Notes under the pieces: model-generated
Seen by the model: the letters and a program-made list of their open reading frames with translations, nothing else
Databases searched by the model: none
What the model was told of the DNA's origin: nothing
Part shown: positions 46,579 to 62,377 of the stretch, piece after piece
Numbering within the stretch: the stretch's first letter is position 1
How the letters are laid out: every line of letters begins with the position of its first letter
Position numbers and translations under genes: made by a program
Source of the DNA: a bacterium
GTDB taxonomy: Bacteria; Patescibacteriota; Minisyncoccia; Phycocordibacterales; UBA918
Length of the DNA stretch: 64,000 bases
Reading direction: 5' to 3'
Assembly: GCA_027487145.1 (NCBI GenBank)
Contig: JAIYEC010000070.1
Location: forward strand, 4,477 to 68,476

Positions 46579-47715
46579 TTAATGATGGTGGTGATGGTGG
46601 TGCGACGAATGATCATTCATGTCAACGGTGCGAGACCGGTAGTACCACGCAGCTACTGCAGTGGTGGCTGGAACAGCCATAATCAGTCCGATACTCCCTA
46701 CAATAATCCGGGTAAGTTCTGCTGCTACCACTTCTTGATTGAAGATAGCAGTCAGGTCAGTCCCCGCTTTCGCGTAGAGCAATATAAGCGGCAATGAAAC
46801 TCCGACATATGCGAGTGCGAGTGTATTAACAATCGAACCAATATGATCTCGCCCTACCACCAGCGCCCGATTATAAAGGTCGCTAAAATTAAAGTCTGGA
46901 TTGGCTGACTTAAGCTGCGCTACCACCGAGGTCTGGGTAACCGCGACGTCATCAAGCACTCCAAGAATACCGATAATAATTCCCCCGAGAAGCAGGCTGG
47001 CTAAATCAAGCGAGCCGTTGGTAGCAAAGTTAAGATAGACCGATGCATCATCACTAAAACCAGTCAGGTGCATACTCCGGACACTCACGTATGAGATGAT
47101 ACATGTCACCAAGACTGCGCTCATCGTACCTAGATACGAAATACAAGCCCGAGCATTAAAGCCGTGAGTTCCAAAGAGCGCAAACGCCATAATAACAGCG
47201 GCAATTCCTAACGTTGTAAGAGCAGGGTTGTATCCAGCCAGGAGCGCTGGCACAAGGAGAAATATAATTGCAGCGATACTTACCCCAAGTGAAAAGAGCG
47301 CTCGTACCCCTTGCCAACGAGAGATAAAGAGCAGTAGCCCAACAAAGAGTCCGAAGATAACTATGAGCGTTGGTCGTCGTTCATACGCTGAAAACGTCAC
47401 ATACTCATCCCCATTGATAGTGACCACTCGATTCACAAAAATGTCATCCCCGACCTCCAGATGTATCACTTCGGCCGTCATTGCTACCACCTCTCCTTTT
47501 TTATCTCCTTCTTCAAGAAGGATCCGTAATTCTTGTACTGTTGTAGTAGTATCAGTGCCGGTCACCTCACGAACGTCTTCACTCACCACTTCAAGGACCG
47601 TAGCTTTGACTGTCTCTTTTACATCTTGATGAACCTCTTGTGCAAAAACTGGTGAGGTACAAAAGAACGTCATAACGAGTGAGACAAAAATCCTAGAAAA
47701 TAAGACGCGCAACAT
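46579..47715 (-). CDS. YibE/F-family-like membrane protein with a natural C-terminal poly-His tail (HSSHHHHHHH)
   Basis: Signal peptide plus extracytoplasmic domain, then about 6 TM helices. The last codons are CAC/CAT x7 before the stop. Confidence 0.55.
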   Translation of the reverse strand: MLRVLFSRIFVSLVMTFFCTSPVFAQEVHQDVKETVKATVLEVVSEDVREVTGTDTTTTVQELRILLEEGDKKGEVVAMTAEVIHLEVGDDIFVNRVVTINGDEYVTFSAYERRPTLIVIFGLFVGLLLFISRWQGVRALFSLGVSIAAIIFLLVPALLAGYNPALTTLGIAAVIMAFALFGTHGFNARACISYLGTMSAVLVTCIISYVSVRSMHLTGFSDDASVYLNFATNGSLDLASLLLGGIIIGILGVLDDVAVTQTSVVAQLKSANPDFNFSDLYNRALVVGRDHIGSIVNTLALAYVGVSLPLILLYAKAGTDLTAIFNQEVVAAELTRIIVGSIGLIMAVPATTAVAAWYYRSRTVDMNDHSSHHHHHHH

Positions 47716-47895: not shown

Positions 47896-47970
47896 TGGCG
47901 GCTATAGTATAATGGTTAATGCATCGGTTTGTGGTACCGAGAATTCGGGTTCAATTCCCGGTAGCCGCCC
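47896..47970 (+). tRNA. tRNA-His (anticodon GTG), with encoded G-1 pairing to C73
   Basis: Folded manually. A 7-bp acceptor stem (gcggcta/tagccgc) with an extra G-1:C73 pair, D arm gtat/atgc with a GG loop, anticodon stem tcggt/accga with loop ttGTGgt, T arm tcggg-ttcaatt-cccgg, and a trailing CC. Confidence 0.85.
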
Positions 47971-48045
47971 CTTTTAGAGCTAGCACGAGAAGGCTACAAA
48001 AATGAACCTCAATTGGGGTTCATTTTTGTAGCCTCTGGTATGCAA

Positions 48046-48963
48046 TTAAACAAGATTTAGAATCTTCGCAACCAGATATTCTGTATCAGAAAAAAATTCA
48101 GATATTTTATTATTCTGGTCTTTATAACCATTTTGCGGGAAAAAACCAAAGTGAATTAACCTATTGCGAATTTTTTCTATCTTTTCTGCGTTTTCTTCTT
48201 CCTTACCATCAAGAAAGTATTCATTTCTGACAAATCTATATTTTTGCTCCACGCTCATTTTTGATATCTCTTTATTATTCATCAATAAAGAATGGTGTAG
48301 TGAAAAAATATGTTCCCAAATTGACCAAGATAGAATAAAAGCGGATTCTGTACACTGGCGTTTTTGCGCCTGAGCAAAAATTAAAAGAAATGCGCCTTTA
48401 CTATATTTCTTTTGCCATACCTCATCCTTAATAGTGGAACATACTTTATTTACCGCGATTTCTAGCCCCTGATCAAATCTGAGCCATTCAAATGCACTAA
48501 GCCCATTTATCTCGACCTCAGAAATGATTTCTCGTGTTTGATTATTTATAGCTTTTCCTACAGGTAGAACAAATCGACCAAAATTACCCCTATGTTGCCT
48601 TGGATCTTCAATAATCTGTATTCTACTTTCAGCGTCACGCCATGTCTTTGCAATAATATTTCGCCCAGTAAGGAGTGATAGAACTAGTAGTATATCTAAA
48701 AATTCTCTAGGTTTTTGGGAACCTACTTCTATACTATTCCACGGCAAAATTGCAACTTTTTGTCTTGAGGGCAACAACGCCAAGGCAGTCACCCGATGAC
48801 TGCCTTGATTGACCTCAAATGAAGTGCTGTTGTACGAGTGCGACAATTCTTTTAATATTTTTTTGTAATCAGGAGCCTGCTTAAAACAATACTCACCTAC
48901 ATTCAGCTCTAAAACATTATCTGGAAACTCAAGGTTGTATATTTCAATCTGAACCCTATCCAT
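48046..48963 (-). CDS. hypothetical protein (island cargo, 305 aa)
   Basis: AT-rich ORF with no recognisable motif. It is the last gene of a three-gene operon. Confidence 0.5.
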   Translation of the reverse strand: MDRVQIEIYNLEFPDNVLELNVGEYCFKQAPDYKKILKELSHSYNSTSFEVNQGSHRVTALALLPSRQKVAILPWNSIEVGSQKPREFLDILLVLSLLTGRNIIAKTWRDAESRIQIIEDPRQHRGNFGRFVLPVGKAINNQTREIISEVEINGLSAFEWLRFDQGLEIAVNKVCSTIKDEVWQKKYSKGAFLLIFAQAQKRQCTESAFILSWSIWEHIFSLHHSLLMNNKEISKMSVEQKYRFVRNEYFLDGKEEENAEKIEKIRNRLIHFGFFPQNGYKDQNNKISEFFSDTEYLVAKILNLV

Positions 48964-49282
48964 TTCCTAATTTTAAGTTGTGTATTGAGAAAAGTAAAAA
49001 TAACGCAGTAACAAAATCAATTATTATCCAAACATCACGAGTAAGGAATACAGGAATAAAAGGGTTAAACAATACTGCTATCACACCAAAGAGCCATACC
49101 CAACCCTCTTGCTTATCTTTGTACGCAAGGTAGGCAACGTATGTAGTCGAAGCAAATACAACGAAACGAAGAATTGTAAAAAATCCATATTGCCAACCAT
49201 CAATCAAAGCTAATAAAAGAAAAACTGATGCAATAAACAGTGCGGTATTTTTCTTTTTATTTTGACCAAAGACCATGTACAA
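48956..49282 (-). CDS. hypothetical small membrane protein (island cargo, 3 TM)
   Basis: 108 aa. It overlaps the downstream gene by 8 nt. Confidence 0.45.
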   Translation of the reverse strand: MYMVFGQNKKKNTALFIASVFLLLALIDGWQYGFFTILRFVVFASTTYVAYLAYKDKQEGWVWLFGVIAVLFNPFIPVFLTRDVWIIIDFVTALFLLFSIHNLKLGNG

Positions 49283-49288
49283 AATAAG

Positions 49289-50476
49289 TTAATTCTTTGG
49301 TGTCAGAAATCTGAAACTTACTCCAGCGGCTTTATAAACATGATCTAGACCTTCTGGTGTAAAGTCGCCTCCAAACAATCTCATTGAACCATCATTATCC
49401 ATACACACTTGCATAAACATAAAATTGTCTTCAATTTTATACATAAAATGCCAAGTACCGACAAGTTTATTCCTATGTTCTTTTAAGAACACTAATATTT
49501 GCGACTGAGTGAAACAGAGATTGTTTAAATCTTTATCTATAGATTTAAACATCTTGTATATCGTTGAATCATTAATAAGATAATGTACTTGTGCTTCAGC
49601 AATGTTTGTGTTTTTTGAAACAAAGTCTGATTTATTTATATCTTCTTCTTCAAAAAAGATAATTTTAAAACTTTCTTTTGAGTTTGCAATATTTATTTTT
49701 CCGTCTGTAGGTGGTATTTGAAAAACAGTATCTGTTTTTATAAGTACATTATTGGGTATATTTTTGATGTCATTGTCTTTTTCCCAAATGATTTTTGATT
49801 CAGTAGAAATATCAGAACTATTAAGTTCTTTAATTTTATACTCTTCATCTTCTTGTTTGCCATAACTTTTTTGAACCTCCTTTGAAATTTTTTCAAAATC
49901 AACATCTTCCTCAATATCTGGTAGATATCCGAAATCGTATTCAATTTTTTCATCTGAACAATCCTGGGAGCCTGTGCCTGCAAGATAATCTTCTTTTGAA
50001 ATTTCTTTAGAGCCGAATAGCTTCTCAAATTTCTCTCGGATAAGAATACCTCCTGTTGGATCTGATTTTCCTATCGACTCTATTTTGGCAATATACTTTT
50101 CATAGCTTGGATAACCATTAAATAGCCAAAAACCAAGTTCTTGAATATTTTGAACCATGTCTGGTGCATTCTGATTAGCTAAATCAATATATAAGTAATA
50201 TGCAGCCTTAATGTATTTTTTAGGGTATGGCAATAATGACATTGGTACTAATGTCATTAATGGATGTAGGGGTAGATGCTCGTTAAATAATTTCAACTGG
50301 AATGAATTAAAATCTTTAAACACCTTCTCTGCGAGGGCATAGTTTGGTTCTTTATATTCTGGGACTGATTCTTTAATCAGATTATAAGCTTTTATTAAAT
50401 CTGAATTATCATACTGATTCACTACCTCCCTATGTGAAATTTTATTTTTAAATAAGCCAAACATATTTTTTATCAT
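49289..50476 (-). CDS. hypothetical protein (island cargo, 395 aa)
   Basis: Very AT-rich with no recognisable motif. It is the first gene of the operon. Confidence 0.5.
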   Translation of the reverse strand: MIKNMFGLFKNKISHREVVNQYDNSDLIKAYNLIKESVPEYKEPNYALAEKVFKDFNSFQLKLFNEHLPLHPLMTLVPMSLLPYPKKYIKAAYYLYIDLANQNAPDMVQNIQELGFWLFNGYPSYEKYIAKIESIGKSDPTGGILIREKFEKLFGSKEISKEDYLAGTGSQDCSDEKIEYDFGYLPDIEEDVDFEKISKEVQKSYGKQEDEEYKIKELNSSDISTESKIIWEKDNDIKNIPNNVLIKTDTVFQIPPTDGKINIANSKESFKIIFFEEEDINKSDFVSKNTNIAEAQVHYLINDSTIYKMFKSIDKDLNNLCFTQSQILVFLKEHRNKLVGTWHFMYKIEDNFMFMQVCMDNDGSMRLFGGDFTPEGLDHVYKAAGVSFRFLTPKN

Positions 50477-50555: not shown

Positions 50556-51908
50556 CTATCTTAAACTTACCTTTCTATCAGTCAGAACAATATGACTCTT
50601 TAAACACCTTATAAATTCACGCTTTTCCTCAACGCTTCCCTCTTGGAGAATAAACTTGGCATAGTTTCGAATATCTATATCCTTTACTACCGCTGAGTTC
50701 TTGTTTCCAAGTAACATATGCTCAAACTTCTTCACTCGCTTTAATTCTTCGGTAATCTTTTCTCTAAGAGGAACAATCTGCATATCTAAATCATCGACTA
50801 AGCTTTGCAGTTGTGGTATCAAGTCGTCTTCGTTAATGAGAGCATTGGGACAGAAGTGGTCTTTGATACGTGTACATTTGTAATAGACGTAGCGGTGGGT
50901 ATTGCCGTTTTTTTGGTGTTTAAATTTCTCATCAGCGGTAATACCCGAGCCACAAAGTCCACATGTCATGATTTTGGTAAAAGCGAACTCTTTTTGAGCG
51001 TACTTTGGTTCTAGAACCTGACTCTTAATCTTTTCTTGCACTAAATCAAATAATTCTTTCGTGATAATTGGTTGATGTGAGCCGTTGTACCAAACACCTG
51101 AACCTTTTGGAAATTCAAAACGACCGTAATAAAAATGGGCTTCTAGAATGCGGTAGATGTTACCAAGACTGAGATGCATATTATTTTCAGTCCTGAAGTT
51201 CACTTCTTCTTTTAACCACTAATGTAGCTTTCGACCACTCCAACCATCATACGCAACCTTCTCAAACATCTGTTTAATGATTGGTGCTCGTTCTGGGTCG
51301 ATTACTGATTCACACTTCTGATCCATTCGTTTGAACTTGGTGTAGCCAGTCAGTGGTCGGCACGGCCACAATCCCATCTCCACTCTTGCCCGCAGTCCTC
51401 GCTTCACGTTTTGACTCTTATTATCGTTTTCAAGTTTGGCTTGCGAACACAGAATCATGAGTAGGAACTTTTCGTTCGGAGAATTAGAGAACGTCTGTCC
51501 ATACGTTTGAATATGAACTAACTTCTTCTGGTCCATCAGGTCTACTAGCGAACCGAGGTCACCCGCATTACGACTTAGTCGGTCTGGTGCCCAGGCCATA
51601 ATTCCATCGTATGTACCGTTTCTAATCTCTTCTAGCAATTCTTTAAAGACAGGTCGCTGTCCTGAATCTTTAGCGGAATGAGCTTCACGTTTAATGGTGA
51701 CTATGTTTAGATTTTGCCGTTCAGCAATCGCCATCATTTCTTTGACCTGTGAATCAATCGATAGTGCTTGCATTTCATCAGACTCAGTACTCTTTCTGGC
51801 GTATAAGCAGTAGCGAATTCTCGCTCCACTAATTGATACACCGTCTTGTACTCTGCCCACAACATTAGTTTCCATCCTTAATTGATGACAGAACGAAAAA
51901 ACCTGCAT
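50556..51908 (-). pseudogene. large serine recombinase (resolvase catalytic domain, recombinase domain and zinc ribbon) interrupted by one in-frame TAG at 51219-51221
   Basis: The N-terminal part has YARKSTESDEMQALSIDSQ. The C-terminal part has the recombinase domain and a Cys4 ribbon. The two ORFs are in the same frame, separated only by TAG plus 5 codons (..GWSGRKLH*WLKEEVNFR..). Confidence 0.7.
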
Positions 51909-52153: not shown

Positions 52154-53053
52154 TTATTGGATGGGACAATTTTGGTGAAAATTCCAATTTACCTTATTTA
52201 CGTCAGGAACACAGGTCAGACCACATCCACGGACATTTCCCTGAGCATTGGCATGAAAGTTACATCTGATTTTCTCAAAATAGTCGTAAGTCTCCATTTG
52301 CTTCTTACCATCAGCAGATACCCTGTCACCACACCATTCCCTTCCATACACGGTAAACTGTCTATGAATGTTGTAGGCACAAATATCCGCTATCTGGAGA
52401 AAATTTTCGTCGCATGACTTCTTAAAATCCACATCCACTATATTTTCATAGCTCTCAGAAAATTTAGTCTCCATACCAAGATTGTTGGTAAAGATACCCC
52501 GAATCTTGTTGTGGGCACCTTTTTCAAGAGAGAGTGAAGACTCAAACTGATCAAATGTGACCACGTTGATGTTGCCAGCATAATTTATCCGTTCCAACAT
52601 TATCTGTGTCGTCTTCAAAAAAGGATTTCCATCTCCGGTTGCTCGCTTCGCATCGCCGTAATACCTCTTGTCAAAAACAACACCAATTACCTTCATCTTG
52701 TCAGCATTCTGAGCAATAAGATCATGCAGATCGTCACCAAACTTATTAAGTTGCTCAACGGTAATACCGTAGGGGTCTAAGTAGTGTTTCTTCCTTTTGT
52801 CTGGTATACGCAACCAAGTCGACTTTATTTCCACATCCGCAGTACCGAAGCAAGCAATCTTTAACGTCCTAACTGCCGCGTCAATAATCCCAATATCTGA
52901 TTGTTTTATACGCACACCACAAAGTACGAAATAGTTTTCCCGCCAAAACTGCTCATTACCTTCAAATGCTGGTGGATTGTCTTTAAAATCCCTTGAGTAT
53001 GGGGCATTGTAGTCTTTCATTCCACTATCATCTACGAAGACTTTATAAAGCAT
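52154..53053 (-). CDS. DUF3800-like protein
   Basis: The N-terminal MLYKVFVDDSG resembles the Y-x-F-x-D-E-S-G start of DUF3800 proteins, which are often found on mobile elements. Confidence 0.4.
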   Translation of the reverse strand: MLYKVFVDDSGMKDYNAPYSRDFKDNPPAFEGNEQFWRENYFVLCGVRIKQSDIGIIDAAVRTLKIACFGTADVEIKSTWLRIPDKRKKHYLDPYGITVEQLNKFGDDLHDLIAQNADKMKVIGVVFDKRYYGDAKRATGDGNPFLKTTQIMLERINYAGNINVVTFDQFESSLSLEKGAHNKIRGIFTNNLGMETKFSESYENIVDVDFKKSCDENFLQIADICAYNIHRQFTVYGREWCGDRVSADGKKQMETYDYFEKIRCNFHANAQGNVRGCGLTCVPDVNKVNWNFHQNCPIQ

Positions 53054-53100: not shown

Positions 53101-53470
53101 GCCAACCAATCCAGGTACATCTCTTCAAATTGGTTCGACTGAGGGCATTACTGTACATTTTAGAGCTAGCCTGAGAGTGACATAAACCTTGTACGAGGTG
53201 AATATTATTAAAAGAGTGACAGTTCCTTGTCACTATGTGACACACGTGAATAAGTGTCACTTTTGTCACTTTTTGCCTATGCACGAGAAGGGTTCTTTTG
53301 AATAAAAATCACTAGCTAGAAAAGCCTTACAGGGTAACGAACCAAACAAGTCGTATCTGCTGAAGGCGCCCTGGAGCAAAGTCCCCCTTGGGGGACTTTT
53401 GCGTAAGGGCGGCCAAGCGAGTGAACTGCTTCACTGCGTCCGGGAATCGAAAGCCGCAGTCATGTTGCGG
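53101..53470. repeat. copy 1 of a conserved hairpin-rich non-coding element, split by a 220-nt insertion that carries the GTGACA array
   Basis: 53101-53148 matches 55611-55661, and 53369-53459 matches 55668-55761. The common core is ccctggagcaaagtccccc..gggggacttttgcgtaaggg, a second hairpin, then gtccg(g/a)gaatcgaaagccg. Confidence 0.55.
53174..53269. promoter_or_regulatory. array of five GTGACA/TGTCAC half-sites forming two inverted repeats plus extra half-sites, about 120-215 bp upstream of the DUF3800 gene
   Basis: gtgacagttccttgtcac and gtgacacacgtgaataagtgtcac, plus agagtgacat and ttttgtcac, read directly from the sequence. Confidence 0.4.
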
Positions 53471-53975
53471 AGCAACAGACGAGGCGGGGTCGAGAGTACT
53501 TAGTAAAATCAGAGCGAAGCGAATAATTCTACTTAGTAACTCGTGACCGATTCCTCCCGGTAGCCGCACTAACGAAAATTTATTTAAAGGGTCCCTATAT
53601 ATGTAGGGATTTTTTAGTTCCAGTCTGATATACTTTTTTTGTATGAGTATATATTTAAAGATGCTTCTTTTGATAGCATCCATATATATTTTTATAGGGA
53701 TAGTATTCGCAACAAAATGGGCAATTACTTATGACCCTGCAGTAAACTCATTTCCTAATAATCCAGTCTCATTTCTTTTTAATATAATATTTTGGTTTAA
53801 TGAATTTTAATTTCATCAAAGCTGGGAATATGTATACTCACATCACCTAACCTCTCAAACACAGTTCTAACATCCTTTACGACGTCGCCCATTTTAAGGA
53901 GCTTTATTTAACAACATATTTTAAAGGTATTTTTTAGTACCTACTGTCCCTAGTAGAACCTGCTATAATTTTACT

Positions 53976-54317
53976 ATGCTGATAGTAACATTCTCACATA
54001 TAGTTAATGCACTCGTAGCGGGAGGTATAGGTATATTACTCCTCCTGAATCTTCCTAGTATGACGGCAGTGTATGGAGAAGCAACTCCTGCCCGATCTAT
54101 CCTGACCAGTGTCTATCTTGCAATTGCAGCAGGAAGTTTATTTGCACTTATCTTTCCCTTACACAGTATCGCAATCGCAAAAGTGCTTTTTCCATTACAG
54201 ATACTATATAAATTTTCAACCATACTAACCGTGGGGACAATTACCCATCCCGTTGTATTAAGTAATCTATTTATTAGCGTATTACACGCCGTCTCTTTAT
54301 TTATGATTTTTAAGTAG
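53976..54317 (+). CDS. hypothetical membrane protein
   Basis: 113 aa with 3-4 hydrophobic helices. Confidence 0.4.
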   Translation: MLIVTFSHIVNALVAGGIGILLLLNLPSMTAVYGEATPARSILTSVYLAIAAGSLFALIFPLHSIAIAKVLFPLQILYKFSTILTVGTITHPVVLSNLFISVLHAVSLFMIFK

Positions 54318-54327
54318 AGCTTCGTTT

Positions 54328-54750
54328 CTACTTTAAGACACCTTTTATTCTTAAATTTCTTGCATACCAAAGCAATCCGGCCGCCACCGCCACTACAAAC
54401 GTAAGGATGATAACTTGTGGTGCACCAAGAGCGGCGAACACTCCTTCGGTTATATCACCTATATAAAGAATAATGTACGCTATGAGTGAAATTGCGAAAA
54501 CTGATATAGCAACGCGGGATTTTAAAGCTAACAACACACTCCCAATAATTCCTCCAAAGACACCAACAGCAAATGCAATGGTCATCCATACAGGGTAATT
54601 CAACATTACCATTGCCTGTTCGGCAGTTAGGCCTTGAGTCATTAGCGACGTTTCTGTTGCGTTTAGTGAAGCAAGAAACTGTACCACTCCAAAGATATTC
54701 CACGCCAACCCCAATCCAACGACTGACCAAAATACTGTTTTTGATTGCAT
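54328..54750 (-). CDS. hypothetical membrane protein
   Basis: 140 aa with 4 TM helices, downstream of the SRPBCC gene. Confidence 0.45.
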   Translation of the reverse strand: MQSKTVFWSVVGLGLAWNIFGVVQFLASLNATETSLMTQGLTAEQAMVMLNYPVWMTIAFAVGVFGGIIGSVLLALKSRVAISVFAISLIAYIILYIGDITEGVFAALGAPQVIILTFVVAVAAGLLWYARNLRIKGVLK

Positions 54751-54751
54751 A

Positions 54752-55177
54752 TTATTTATTAATTAATTGTGTAAGCTTAGCAAATGCTGATTCCCACCCC
54801 ATTGCATGCATTTCTCGCAAAAACGGCTGATTGAGATTCTCTTGTATCAAAGTTAATTCTGATCCAGCTTCAATCAGTCTTATAGTGACGATAATCCGAG
54901 ACGAGTCCATTGGCAAATCATGAATACGCCAGGTAAATACCAACGTATGTTCTGGTTCGACTTTCTCAAATACACCGGTTGTTGTATGTATCACTCCACT
55001 TGGCTCTATAACATCAATATCATATTCAGCCCCTTCAACGACTTCGTACTTCTTTAGATGTGCCTCACTCTCTCCTGGTCCAAACCATTTGATAAATTGA
55101 GTCGGGTCGGTCCACGCTTGCCACACTTCGCTTGGTGAGGCACTGAATGTTTTTATAATTGTAATAGTGTTTTCCAT
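54752..55177 (-). CDS. SRPBCC / AHSA1-domain protein
   Basis: The pattern of about 140 aa (..FSASPSEVWQAWTDPTQFIKWFGP..) is typical of the Aha1-like START/Bet v1 fold, which commonly pairs with ArsR regulators. Confidence 0.65.
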   Translation of the reverse strand: MENTITIIKTFSASPSEVWQAWTDPTQFIKWFGPGESEAHLKKYEVVEGAEYDIDVIEPSGVIHTTTGVFEKVEPEHTLVFTWRIHDLPMDSSRIIVTIRLIEAGSELTLIQENLNQPFLREMHAMGWESAFAKLTQLINK

Positions 55178-55186
55178 GATAAAAAT

Positions 55187-55543
55187 TTATTTTTTACTAA
55201 GTAGTTTATCCAGCGCATCAAAATTAGTATTCCAAAACTTGGTGTATTTTTGCACCCACGCCTGAAGTACTTTGAGTGAATGCGGTTCAAGACTCACAAT
55301 TACGTTGCGACTTTCTTTTCTCCGTTTAATTAACTTTGCCTCCTCGAGTACCCGCAAATGTTTAGATAGTGCTGGAGCAGACATCTGATAGTACGGTGAC
55401 AGTACCTCAACTGAAAGCGGACCACTACTTACTCGCTCTATAATCGAACGACGAGTTGGATCAGCTAGGGCTTTAAAAATTGCATCCATTGATGATTGAT
55501 TAACCATACGGTTAAATGTATCATGTAGATACTTAACCGTCAA
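55187..55543 (-). CDS. ArsR/SmtB-family transcriptional regulator
   Basis: Winged HTH LADPTRRSIIERVSSGPLSVEVLSPYYQMSAPALSKHLRVLEEAKLI. Confidence 0.8.
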   Translation of the reverse strand: MTVKYLHDTFNRMVNQSSMDAIFKALADPTRRSIIERVSSGPLSVEVLSPYYQMSAPALSKHLRVLEEAKLIKRRKESRNVIVSLEPHSLKVLQAWVQKYTKFWNTNFDALDKLLSKK

Positions 55544-55610
55544 GTTAAGTATGCTGATGTGACATATCCCTCCTATGTGAACATCTCAAGCAAAACAAAA
55601 CCCTTGCTTC

Positions 55611-55765
55611 ACTCAACCATTCAAGACACAGCTCTTCCAATTGGTTCCACCCGAGGGTTGGCAGCCGCCCTGGAGCAAAGTCCCCCTTTCGGGGGACTTT
55701 TGCGTAAGGGCGCCTAGGGAAGCAGACTGTTTTGCTTCCGTCCGAGAATCGAAAGCCGGAGCGAT
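55611..55765. repeat. copy 2 of the conserved hairpin-rich non-coding element (contiguous form)
   Basis: See copy 1. It lies between the stop of the 747-aa surface protein gene and the start of arsR. Confidence 0.55.
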
Positions 55766-55899
55766 ATTTATGAGCGAGCAGGTGAGAAATGGGATGGGAC
55801 CCGTTTCCCAAACTTTTTTCACTCTACGACCTCGCGTAAACGAAAAAACACCAGGCTATTTGTCCGGTGTTTTTACATTTCTTTATATAAGTATAGTGA

Positions 55900-62173: not shown

Positions 62174-62192
62174 TGTCCAGGACTGGAGTTGG
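62174..62192. repeat. 19-nt direct copy of the tRNA-Leu 3' end (gtgtccaggactggagttg)
   Basis: Identical to 62372-62390. It lies 180 bp from the tRNA 3' end. Confidence 0.7.
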
Positions 62193-62324
62193 TCACGAAT
62201 CACTAAGTAGATTTTTCGTCTTCGACTCCCAATCTCCTAAGTGTTCTCGACCCCGTCTCGCTAGCTCACAAGCTCACATCGCTCCGACTTTCAACTCCAG
62301 ACGAACGACGCGCAGGCGTCCTTC

Positions 62325-62377
62325 TTCCTGGACACAATTAAAAAAACCGGCATACGCCGGCTTTTTTAATTGTGTCC
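62325..62377. repeat. near-perfect inverted repeat with arms of about 25 bp (cctggacacaattaaaaaaaccggc..gccggcttttttaattgtgtccagg) whose right arm is the tRNA-Leu 3' end; it also works as a bidirectional terminator
   Basis: Read directly from the sequence, with one mismatch in the arms. Confidence 0.65.

Follow-up and report, generated by a model that had tools for sequence, protein, structure and literature searches.

A three-gene cluster with a DUF6804 membrane protein and a HEPN-type protein on a tRNA-His islet of a Patescibacteriota bacterium

Introduction

Kiwa (KwaA/KwaB) is a two-part defense system that consists of a membrane protein and a soluble effector, and bacteria of the Candidate Phyla Radiation (CPR, or Patescibacteria) have tiny genomes with little mobile cargo that matches described defense systems. 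Here, we analyzed a cluster of three adjacent genes, named A, B, and C, in a stretch of DNA of 64,000 nucleotides (nt) from a bacterium of the Patescibacteriota (contig JAIYEC010000070.1, positions 4,477 to 68,476). This whole stretch is referred to as the window, and all positions are given within it unless another locus is named. In our assessment, the chances that the three genes form one functional modular conflict or defense cassette are about evenly balanced.

HEPN nucleases provide the closest described systems. ApeA is a mostly helical protein of about 580 amino acids (aa) with N, Mid, and split-HEPN domains, which assembles into decamers or dodecamers, and it cleaves the tRNA anticodon loop once a ligand has bound in its N-domain/HEPN pocket (10.64898/2026.01.26.701840). 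ApeA/BMEI1217 has been noted in restriction-modification (R-M) operons (PMC3710099). The HEPN anticodon nucleases PrrC and RloC are likewise linked to R-M genes, and an R-M-embedded arrangement with RhuM as a neighbor has been described for defense HEPN proteins (PMC3710099). The cluster analyzed here had been singled out by a prediction made from the nucleotide sequence (hereafter, the original prediction), which regarded it as an accessory anti-phage or abortive-infection module.

Results

The gene cluster

The three genes are arranged as follows:

49289-50476, minus strand: gene A, 395 aa, ATG start (from the list of open reading frames, ORFs)
48956-49282, minus strand: gene B, 108 aa with a TTG start, match to Pfam DUF6804
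48046-48963, minus strand: gene C, 305 aa, ATG start (from the list of ORFs)

Genes B and C overlap by 8 nt (ATGGATAG), and the junction ...AAT GGA TAG encloses the ATG of C. The gap between A and B is 6 nt when counted from the TTG start of B; the database copy of B (P0172) has an ATG start at 49276, which yields a protein of 106 aa and an A/B gap of 12 nt. The GC content is 0.301 for A, 0.333 for B, and 0.352 for C and about 0.40 for the neighboring genes for a serine recombinase and a DUF3800 protein; across the tRNA gene from the cluster, the genes for MscL, a YibE/F-like protein, and ribonucleotide reductase have values of 0.42-0.47. Because homologs of each gene elsewhere show conserved columns, A, B, and C are, as judged from these alignments, real genes and no chance ORFs. 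A scan for promoters stayed at the shuffled background (18 found vs 17.9 expected) and was uninformative, and no rRNA gene was found in the window.

The original prediction had described three tightly packed minus-strand ORFs with an 8-nt overlap and a 6-nt gap, and both the coordinates and the junctions agree with this description, although the gap depends on the TTG start. The extreme AT-richness that it reported is also borne out by comparison with the neighboring housekeeping genes, as is the position in an island with tRNA-His on one side and the serine recombinase and DUF3800 genes on the other. Its statement that the genes have no recognizable motifs had to be abandoned, since B matches DUF6804 (E=2.7e-26) and C has the R266-N-R-L-I-H271 motif together with a HEPN fold.

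Gene C, a HEPN-type protein

The family of C is rare, with only 12 relatives in an index of 5.8 billion proteins. The segment R266-N267-R268-L-I-H271 corresponds to an R-x4-H motif with a polar residue after the arginine, and R-N-R-x-x-H is invariant in 12 of the 12 aligned C-family sequences, all of which also keep W213, W216-E217-H218, and several aromatic residues of the N-terminal half. The AlphaFold model of C (pLDDT 79, pTM 0.81) is beta-rich in its N domain (aa 1-165) and helical in its C domain (aa 166-301), and in this predicted structure the C-terminal domain has the all-helical fold with four core helices of the HEPN superfamily. The domains can be summarized as follows:

C, about aa 1-165: alpha/beta domain
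C, about aa 166-305: HEPN domain with R266-N-R-L-I-H271, predicted ribonuclease (RNase) effector

The best structural matches of C include toxins from HEPN-MNT systems (7ae2, 8xdj, and 5yep). In profile searches, HEPN_Apea was matched by three of the 12 family members (PF18739, best E=1.1e-5), RiboL-PSP by one, and Swt1 by one; weaker matches were to Cas13a, DUF3644, and Csx1, with Csm6 also listed. For the C protein of the window, a weak match to the PADLOC Cas13a HEPN model (E=0.0012) was the sole library match, and PF18739 gave no match at E≤1. None of the PADLOC ApeA models was matched by any of the 12 members, and a tblastn search of GenBank phages yielded no match to C. Because of the invariance of the motif, the predicted helical fold, and the profile matches of its relatives, C is, on the basis of alignment and structure model, a HEPN-domain protein with a complete catalytic-type motif. 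By analogy, it is predicted to be a compact, distantly ApeA-like endoribonuclease, and its RNase activity is accordingly a putative one.

Two homologs of C were found in other settings. P0003 (62% identity) comes after a NOV_C/PDC-S36-like gene, with a retron-like reverse transcriptase (RT) encoded in the same islet (L001-L004), and P0006 (48% identity) lies inside a type I R-M operon of locus L005:

L005, 1415-9348: HsdM, RhuM (PADLOC PDC-S05, E=4e-140), C-family HEPN protein, half-size HsdS, two unknown genes, and HsdR

The latter is a textbook arrangement of an R-M-embedded toxin that holds the rare C family, and its gene order fits the R-M-embedded HEPN-plus-RhuM arrangement known for defense HEPN proteins (PMC3710099). 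Together, the R-M operon with RhuM and the islet with the retron-like RT and the NOV_C/PDC-S36-like gene partly support a defense reading of the C family. Neither A nor B is present beside the C homologs in L001-L005.

Gene B, DUF6804, and its neighborhood

B matches Pfam DUF6804 (PF20619) with E=2.7e-26 and 92 bits (cut-off 27) over profile positions 5-90 of 91, and thus belongs to this family with a score above the gathering threshold and an essentially full-length alignment. An alignment of DUF6804 with 26 homologs has a mean column identity of 60% and shows the motifs GWQYGFFTILRFVVF, LFNPFIP, and W..ID. The original prediction had described B as a protein with three transmembrane (TM) segments; for this small integral membrane protein, the number of segments is uncertain, with three to four hydrophobic segments by hydropathy and a K-rich N-terminus. 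We favor four TM segments with both termini inside the cell, and the cytoplasmic position of the termini is suggested by the K-rich N-terminus and by a natural fusion protein (P0027) that places the signal-less domains of A after DUF6804. A search of a literature library found no paper mentioning DUF6804. One homolog of B is labelled Patescibacteria.

Among GenBank phages, tblastn found one segment with 30% identity over 81% of B. This sole phage match to DUF6804 (L105) lies in a gene annotated as 'bacterial SH3 domain protein' in Acinetobacter phage 4316 (OM334891.1, 10987-11508), between virion-associated transglycosylase genes and the tail spike gene.

We then surveyed DUF6804 loci in JGI metagenomes, of which 233 were confirmed by tblastn and 80 were fetched; together with the loci collected earlier, 90 B genes were available, 68 of them distinct. 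An upstream gene on the same strand within 250 nt is present in 65 of the 68 distinct loci, with a median gap of 2 nt and with 55 of the 65 gaps at or below 20 nt. These upstream partners belong to more than 12 families unrelated by BLAST, many of which are themselves multi-TM proteins. On the downstream side, 17 of the 38 distinct loci with at least 600 nt of downstream sequence have a gene on the same strand within 20 nt. The downstream families include an AbiEii toxin-type nucleotidyltransferase (Pfam 3.7e-24), which shares 8 nt with DUF6804 in 10 of 13 loci and 17 nt in two others; an SNase at a gap of +1 (four loci); the HEPN protein C with an overlap of 8 or 14 nt; DUF5678; an Mrr-like nuclease, whose motif was read by eye only, at a gap of 12 nt (L038); and an SDH ClpP-like protease about 230 nt away. 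Upstream and downstream families combine freely around DUF6804. The way in which AbiEii genes overlap DUF6804 points to co-translation with effectors and not to a chance neighborhood.

These positions bear on the idea that the cluster is a toxin-antitoxin (addiction) module that stabilizes the islet, in which C would be the toxin, B or A would neutralize it, and phage defense would be at most a side effect. The HEPN-MNT toxins among the best structural matches of C would fit such a module, as would the presence of DUF6804 in the overlapping upstream slot, where the AbiEi antitoxin precedes AbiEii, and the location of the cluster on a mobile element beside a recombinase. We nevertheless regard this explanation as improbable: profile searches revealed neither an MNT-type nucleotidyltransferase nor a DNA-binding antitoxin in the vicinity, specific neutralization of HEPN, AbiEii, and SNase enzymes by a single conserved membrane protein is improbable, and homologs of C occur without such a partner (L001 and L005).

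Gene A, a mosaic protein

Gene A encodes an acidic, soluble protein without a signal peptide or TM segment, with the following domains:

A, about aa 20-205: helical N1 domain
A, aa 206-228: disordered acidic linker
A, about aa 240-395: alpha/beta C1 domain

No match to A was found in Pfam, NCBIfam, PHROGs, or PADLOC, a tblastn search of GenBank phages gave no match, and a search of viral contigs with one of the alignments gave no confirmed relative. Alignment of homologs resolved the A family into four modules, namely N1 (helical; motifs EPNYxLA and LLPYPKxYIKxAYY, tail DFGxLPxIEED), N2 (the N-termini of P0019, P0021, and P0031), C1 (the alpha/beta domain), and R (repeats of about 43 aa). They occur as N1-C1 (the window), N1-R (L006), N2-C1, N2-R (L022), N1 alone, and C1 alone. 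The C1 family is large: the profile search gave 342 matches at E≤0.001, and more than 120 of the 150 matches listed, counted as cluster representatives, were confirmed with C1 alone; at times, C1 is found in tandem repeat. When 77 C1 members were compared with Pfam and PHROGs, no recurrent family was recovered, and the annotations of their clusters read just 'hypothetical protein'. The named genomes with N1 homologs all belong to the Patescibacteria/CPR (Berkelbacteria, Nomurabacteria, Gracilibacteria, Paceibacterota, and Kaiserbacteria), and judged by such relatives the host of the window is most likely a member of this group as well.

A stand-alone C1 protein was observed at 5001-5561 of L021 (a logan SRR21686402 contig) amid approximately 20 tiny genes on the same strand. 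Its neighbors include a PG_binding_1 protein and a collagen-repeat protein, and the contig has the look of a phage genome. Because of these phage-like surroundings, C1 appears to circulate in phages as well.

Co-occurrence of A, B, and C

The order of the three genes recurs in other loci. L022 carries a recombinase, an N2-R protein (505 aa), DUF6804, and a C homolog (60% identity), and L104 carries an R-module protein that is cut off where the contig ends, followed by DUF6804 and a C homolog. In L023, a 137-aa multi-TM protein precedes DUF6804 and a C homolog, so that B and C occur there without an A-type protein. The B/C overlap is 14 nt in each of L022, L023, and L104. Within the closest clade of C, comprising the C protein of the window and four homologs with at least 51% identity, DUF6804 lies directly upstream in four of five cases. 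The possibility that A, B, and C never co-occur elsewhere was therefore rejected, as the trio order recurs in L022 and L104 and the B-C pair in L023.

A-type proteins (with N1, C1, or R) are found beside DUF6804 in the window, L006, L012/13, L017/18 (in reversed order), L019, L022, and L104. In the fusion protein P0027, DUF6804 (aa 9-97) is followed by N1 (121-304) and C1 (324-477). In L011 (3331-5985), its gene lies two genes downstream of a ThsB-like TIR protein, with a 544-aa serine recombinase 2.9 kb away, and L011 is another small defense-type islet. A and B occur without C in L006, L012, and L019. Among these, L006 is syntenic with the window (MscL, ribonucleotide reductase, and an adjoining tRNA-His) and has genes for a recombinase, an N1-R protein, and DUF6804 as well as an unrelated gene of 186 aa. 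This orphan (L006, 6127-6687) occupies the slot of C with an 8-nt overlap with DUF6804, has no match in Pfam, PADLOC, or PDB, and may be another effector type.

The original prediction had treated the three genes as one unit and was to be given up if they did not co-occur in other genomes. Co-occurrence in the order A-type protein, DUF6804, and C is supported by L022 and L104; an obligatory unit is not, given C without A or B and A-B without C, and failure to co-occur was observed in part, as DUF6804 is found with numerous other families on either side.

The same distribution would be expected of two independent neighboring modules, in which C is an autonomous HEPN defense or toxin gene and A-B is an unrelated membrane module, for example for superinfection exclusion or the envelope, with no signal passing between them. 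C homologs without A or B (L001-5), A-B without C (L006, L012, and L019), and the free combination of families around DUF6804 are all compatible with this explanation, as is the finding that ApeA acts as a single protein (bioRxiv 10.64898/2026.01.26.701840). It is harder to reconcile with the presence of DUF6804 directly upstream of C in four of the five members of the closest clade, with a stop-start overlap kept at 8 or 14 nt, and with the AbiEii genes that overlap DUF6804 in the same manner. Overall, we consider it possible but rather unlikely.

The carrier islet at tRNA-His

The cluster lies within an islet with the following features:

47898-47971, plus strand: tRNA-His(GTG) gene (ARAGORN; Rfam tRNA 60.5 bits), integration landmark and left border
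47972-47990: direct repeat TTTTAGAGCTAGCACGAGA, directly after the tRNA gene, candidate att core or left islet end
47991-48034: near-perfect palindrome of 44 nt without a spacer (22-nt arms with 95% complementarity), between the C stop codon and the tRNA-His gene
50556-51908, minus strand: large serine recombinase with Resolvase, Recombinase, and Zn_ribbon_recom domains (Pfam) over two ORFs
52154-53053, minus strand: DUF3800 protein, 299 aa (Pfam E=2.1e-10), second cargo slot on the far side of the recombinase
53158-53176: distal repeat copy TTTTAGAGCTAGCCTGAGA, approximate right islet end

The two copies of the 19-nt direct repeat (TTTTAGAGCTAGC...) are 89% identical and are spaced by 5186 nt. 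Comparison by blastn with L006 and L010 revealed a homology break at 53202-53211, with a common flank from about 53202. Based on the repeat copies and this common flank, the islet is about 5.2 kb long. A tRNA-His gene is found at the same syntenic place in L006, and the sister islet in L001 is flanked by the same tRNA-end/TTTTAGAGCTA junction. The palindrome is possibly a terminator hairpin or a recombinase site.

Cargo differs between islets on both sides of the recombinase, and the GC content falls across the islet. The second cargo slot holds an Old-family ATPase gene (PADLOC Old, 4.8e-59) and a 136-aa gene in L006, a retron-like RT gene in L001, and nothing in L010. With tRNA-His and the common flank, the direct repeat, the drop in GC content, and the other cargo in related islets, the region has the defined ends and variable cargo of an integrative element. 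The view that A, B, and C belong to the cargo of a mobile islet is likewise upheld by the sister islets, whose own cargo includes recognized defense-type genes, namely those for an Old-family ATPase, a NOV_C/PDC-S36-like nuclease, and a retron-like RT. Among the survey loci, a large serine recombinase is encoded within about 5 kb of DUF6804 in four of the 17 longer distinct loci, and a tRNA gene is present in the fetched stretch in 13 of 59 distinct loci.

All three domains of the large serine recombinase are present, and the ORF is interrupted by one in-frame TAG codon at 51219-51221 (...KLH-stop-WLKEE...), which splits it into ORFs of 229 aa and 215 aa. Intact homologs of 439-440 aa are encoded in L001-3, L006, L010, and L022, and the nucleotide identity to those of L001-3, L006, and L010 is 76-82%. 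The TAG reflects either a recent pseudogene or a sequencing error, and because of this in-frame stop the islet is probably immobile now. An alternative genetic code with UGA recoding was considered for the split recombinase and rejected, since the ORF is interrupted by TAG and table 11 leaves the other ORFs intact.

The interrupted recombinase could also indicate decaying cargo on a dead islet, or else the cluster might serve a non-defense, lineage-specific function such as the envelope or episymbiosis of CPR cells. Besides the in-frame TAG, such explanations would agree with the strong conservation of DUF6804, which is often paired with other membrane proteins, and with the occurrence of C1-family proteins among housekeeping genes. 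We consider them very improbable, because the three ORFs are intact, their homologs keep conserved motifs, C keeps the full HEPN motif, and defense-type genes surround the relatives.

A structured element of approximately 230 nt, named element X, was observed next to the islet at 53345-53580 (plus strand), with weaker copies at 55662-55777 (plus) and 62178-62339 (minus). Further copies are present in L001 (667-893 and 7022-7232), L007 (6919-7086), L025 (1644-1770), and L027 (418-603). Element X recurs beside tRNA genes and at the ends of serine-recombinase islets, and the islet of the window lies between tRNA-His and X. Its minimum free energy z-score is -4.4 on the plus strand and -5.9 on the minus strand, RNAalifold with eight copies gave 24 pairs, of which 14 show compensatory double changes, and its 3' end resembles that of tRNA-His; no family was matched in Rfam. 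It may be an undescribed tRNA-linked non-coding RNA, or it may mark a conserved terminus that related integrative elements have in common. Between two X copies, a second low-GC stretch (0.39-0.40) at 53600-55800 has four small ORFs on both strands, which by eye resemble genes for an ArsR-type helix-turn-helix regulator, an SRPBCC/AHSA1-like protein, and two membrane proteins, and it may be a remnant of another islet in tandem at the tRNA-His hotspot. On the other side, a 378-aa multi-TM protein adjoining the tRNA gene (46579-47715, minus strand) ends in a natural C-terminal His run (...HSSHHHHHHH).

Proposed function

If the three genes act as one cassette, they would represent three slots, namely a variable partner, DUF6804 as the membrane hub, and a toxic effector that can be exchanged. 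The N-terminal alpha/beta domain of C may be a regulator or sensor, and, in analogy to HEPN defense proteins such as ApeA and PrrC, C would be inactive until an infection-linked cue appears. Activated C would then cut tRNA or other RNA, translation would stop, and phage growth would be aborted. B, in the inner membrane, would be a physical partner of the protein encoded upstream (here A) and would be translationally coupled to the downstream effector gene, so that sensing or gating at the membrane could fall to A and B, and killing or arrest to C. The A-B complex, the flow of a signal from A-B to C, and the anti-phage role are what we infer.

A broader view would see DUF6804 as the conserved membrane hub of an unrecognized, largely CPR-specific family of conflict systems with an exchangeable effector, which we put forward tentatively and hold to be somewhat doubtful. 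Effectors such as the HEPN RNase, the AbiEii nucleotidyltransferase, and the SNase or Mrr-like nuclease would be gated or localized by the hub upon membrane events. The trio of the window would then be one member of the family, with a mosaic sensor assembled from the orphan domains N1, N2, C1, and R, which have no detectable structural relatives.

Several observations weigh against one cassette. C appears from its gene contexts to need neither A nor DUF6804, because its homologs sit without both in L001-L005. DUF6804 also occurs with partners but no effector downstream (a close gene is present in 17 of 38 loci), and the free combination of families also fits independent modules lying side by side in a variable region. 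The mean column identity of 60% for B is far above the usual level for defense genes, C1 is also found as a stand-alone protein in housekeeping and phage-like contexts, and with its interrupted recombinase the islet may be decaying. Moreover, no known-system model of PADLOC-DB v2 matches the trio, and A and B have no matches in it.

Comparison with known systems and significance

The PADLOC check that the original prediction had called for thus recovered no described system for the trio. The idea of an accessory anti-phage or abortive-infection module survives in its defense-type setting and in the effector-type HEPN protein C, while the motif-less and obligatory trio does not. A fully undescribed system is also more than can be upheld; C belongs to the familiar HEPN effector class, and the island logic is familiar too.

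If the cassette exists as proposed, C would be a miniature ApeA-related HEPN effector, half the size of characterized ApeA, and could help define the minimal sensor-plus-HEPN unit. A DUF6804 gene translationally coupled to unrelated toxin-type enzymes in dozens of metagenomic loci would provide a testable hypothesis for this domain of unknown function, and small serine-recombinase islets at tRNA genes would be seen to exchange defense cargo in both slots. If it does not, the cluster would be ordinary island cargo with a HEPN toxin gene.

Like ApeA, C ends in a HEPN domain with R-x4-H, begins with a region for which no homologs are known, and has no dedicated antitoxin, and the C family, too, is found embedded in an R-M operon (L005). 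Unlike ApeA, C has 305 aa, a beta-rich N domain, and a minimal HEPN domain, and it is coupled to a membrane-protein gene. C as a canonical ApeA was rejected on the basis of its size, its architecture, and the lack of a PF18739 or PADLOC ApeA match for the protein of the window. PrrC and RloC resemble the C family in that a HEPN effector forms a second line of defense, with P0006 located between hsdM/RhuM and hsdS of a type I R-M system; however, C has no ABC-ATPase N-terminal domain, and the C gene of the window is not beside R-M genes.

The differences from HEPN-MNT (HepT-MntA) systems lie in the neighbors of C, which are DUF6804 and tRNA-His, in the absence of any nucleotidyltransferase domain found in A or B, in the extra 165-aa N-terminal domain of C, and in an upstream gene that encodes a membrane protein. 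With regard to AbiE, the AbiEii gene overlaps the end of DUF6804 in 12 of 13 surveyed loci (8 or 17 nt) and C overlaps DUF6804 in the window likewise, but DUF6804 replaces AbiEi in those loci and the window has a HEPN protein rather than AbiEii. Kiwa is similar in layout only, with a small multi-TM protein beside soluble partners in a defense-type island, and PADLOC detected no sequence or profile similarity. Taken together, the trio is best described as a HEPN-based abortive-infection or toxin module on a defense islet, for which the effector class and the island logic are familiar, whereas the domains of A, the pattern of coupling to DUF6804, and the CPR setting are new; its presumed function follows from these comparisons.

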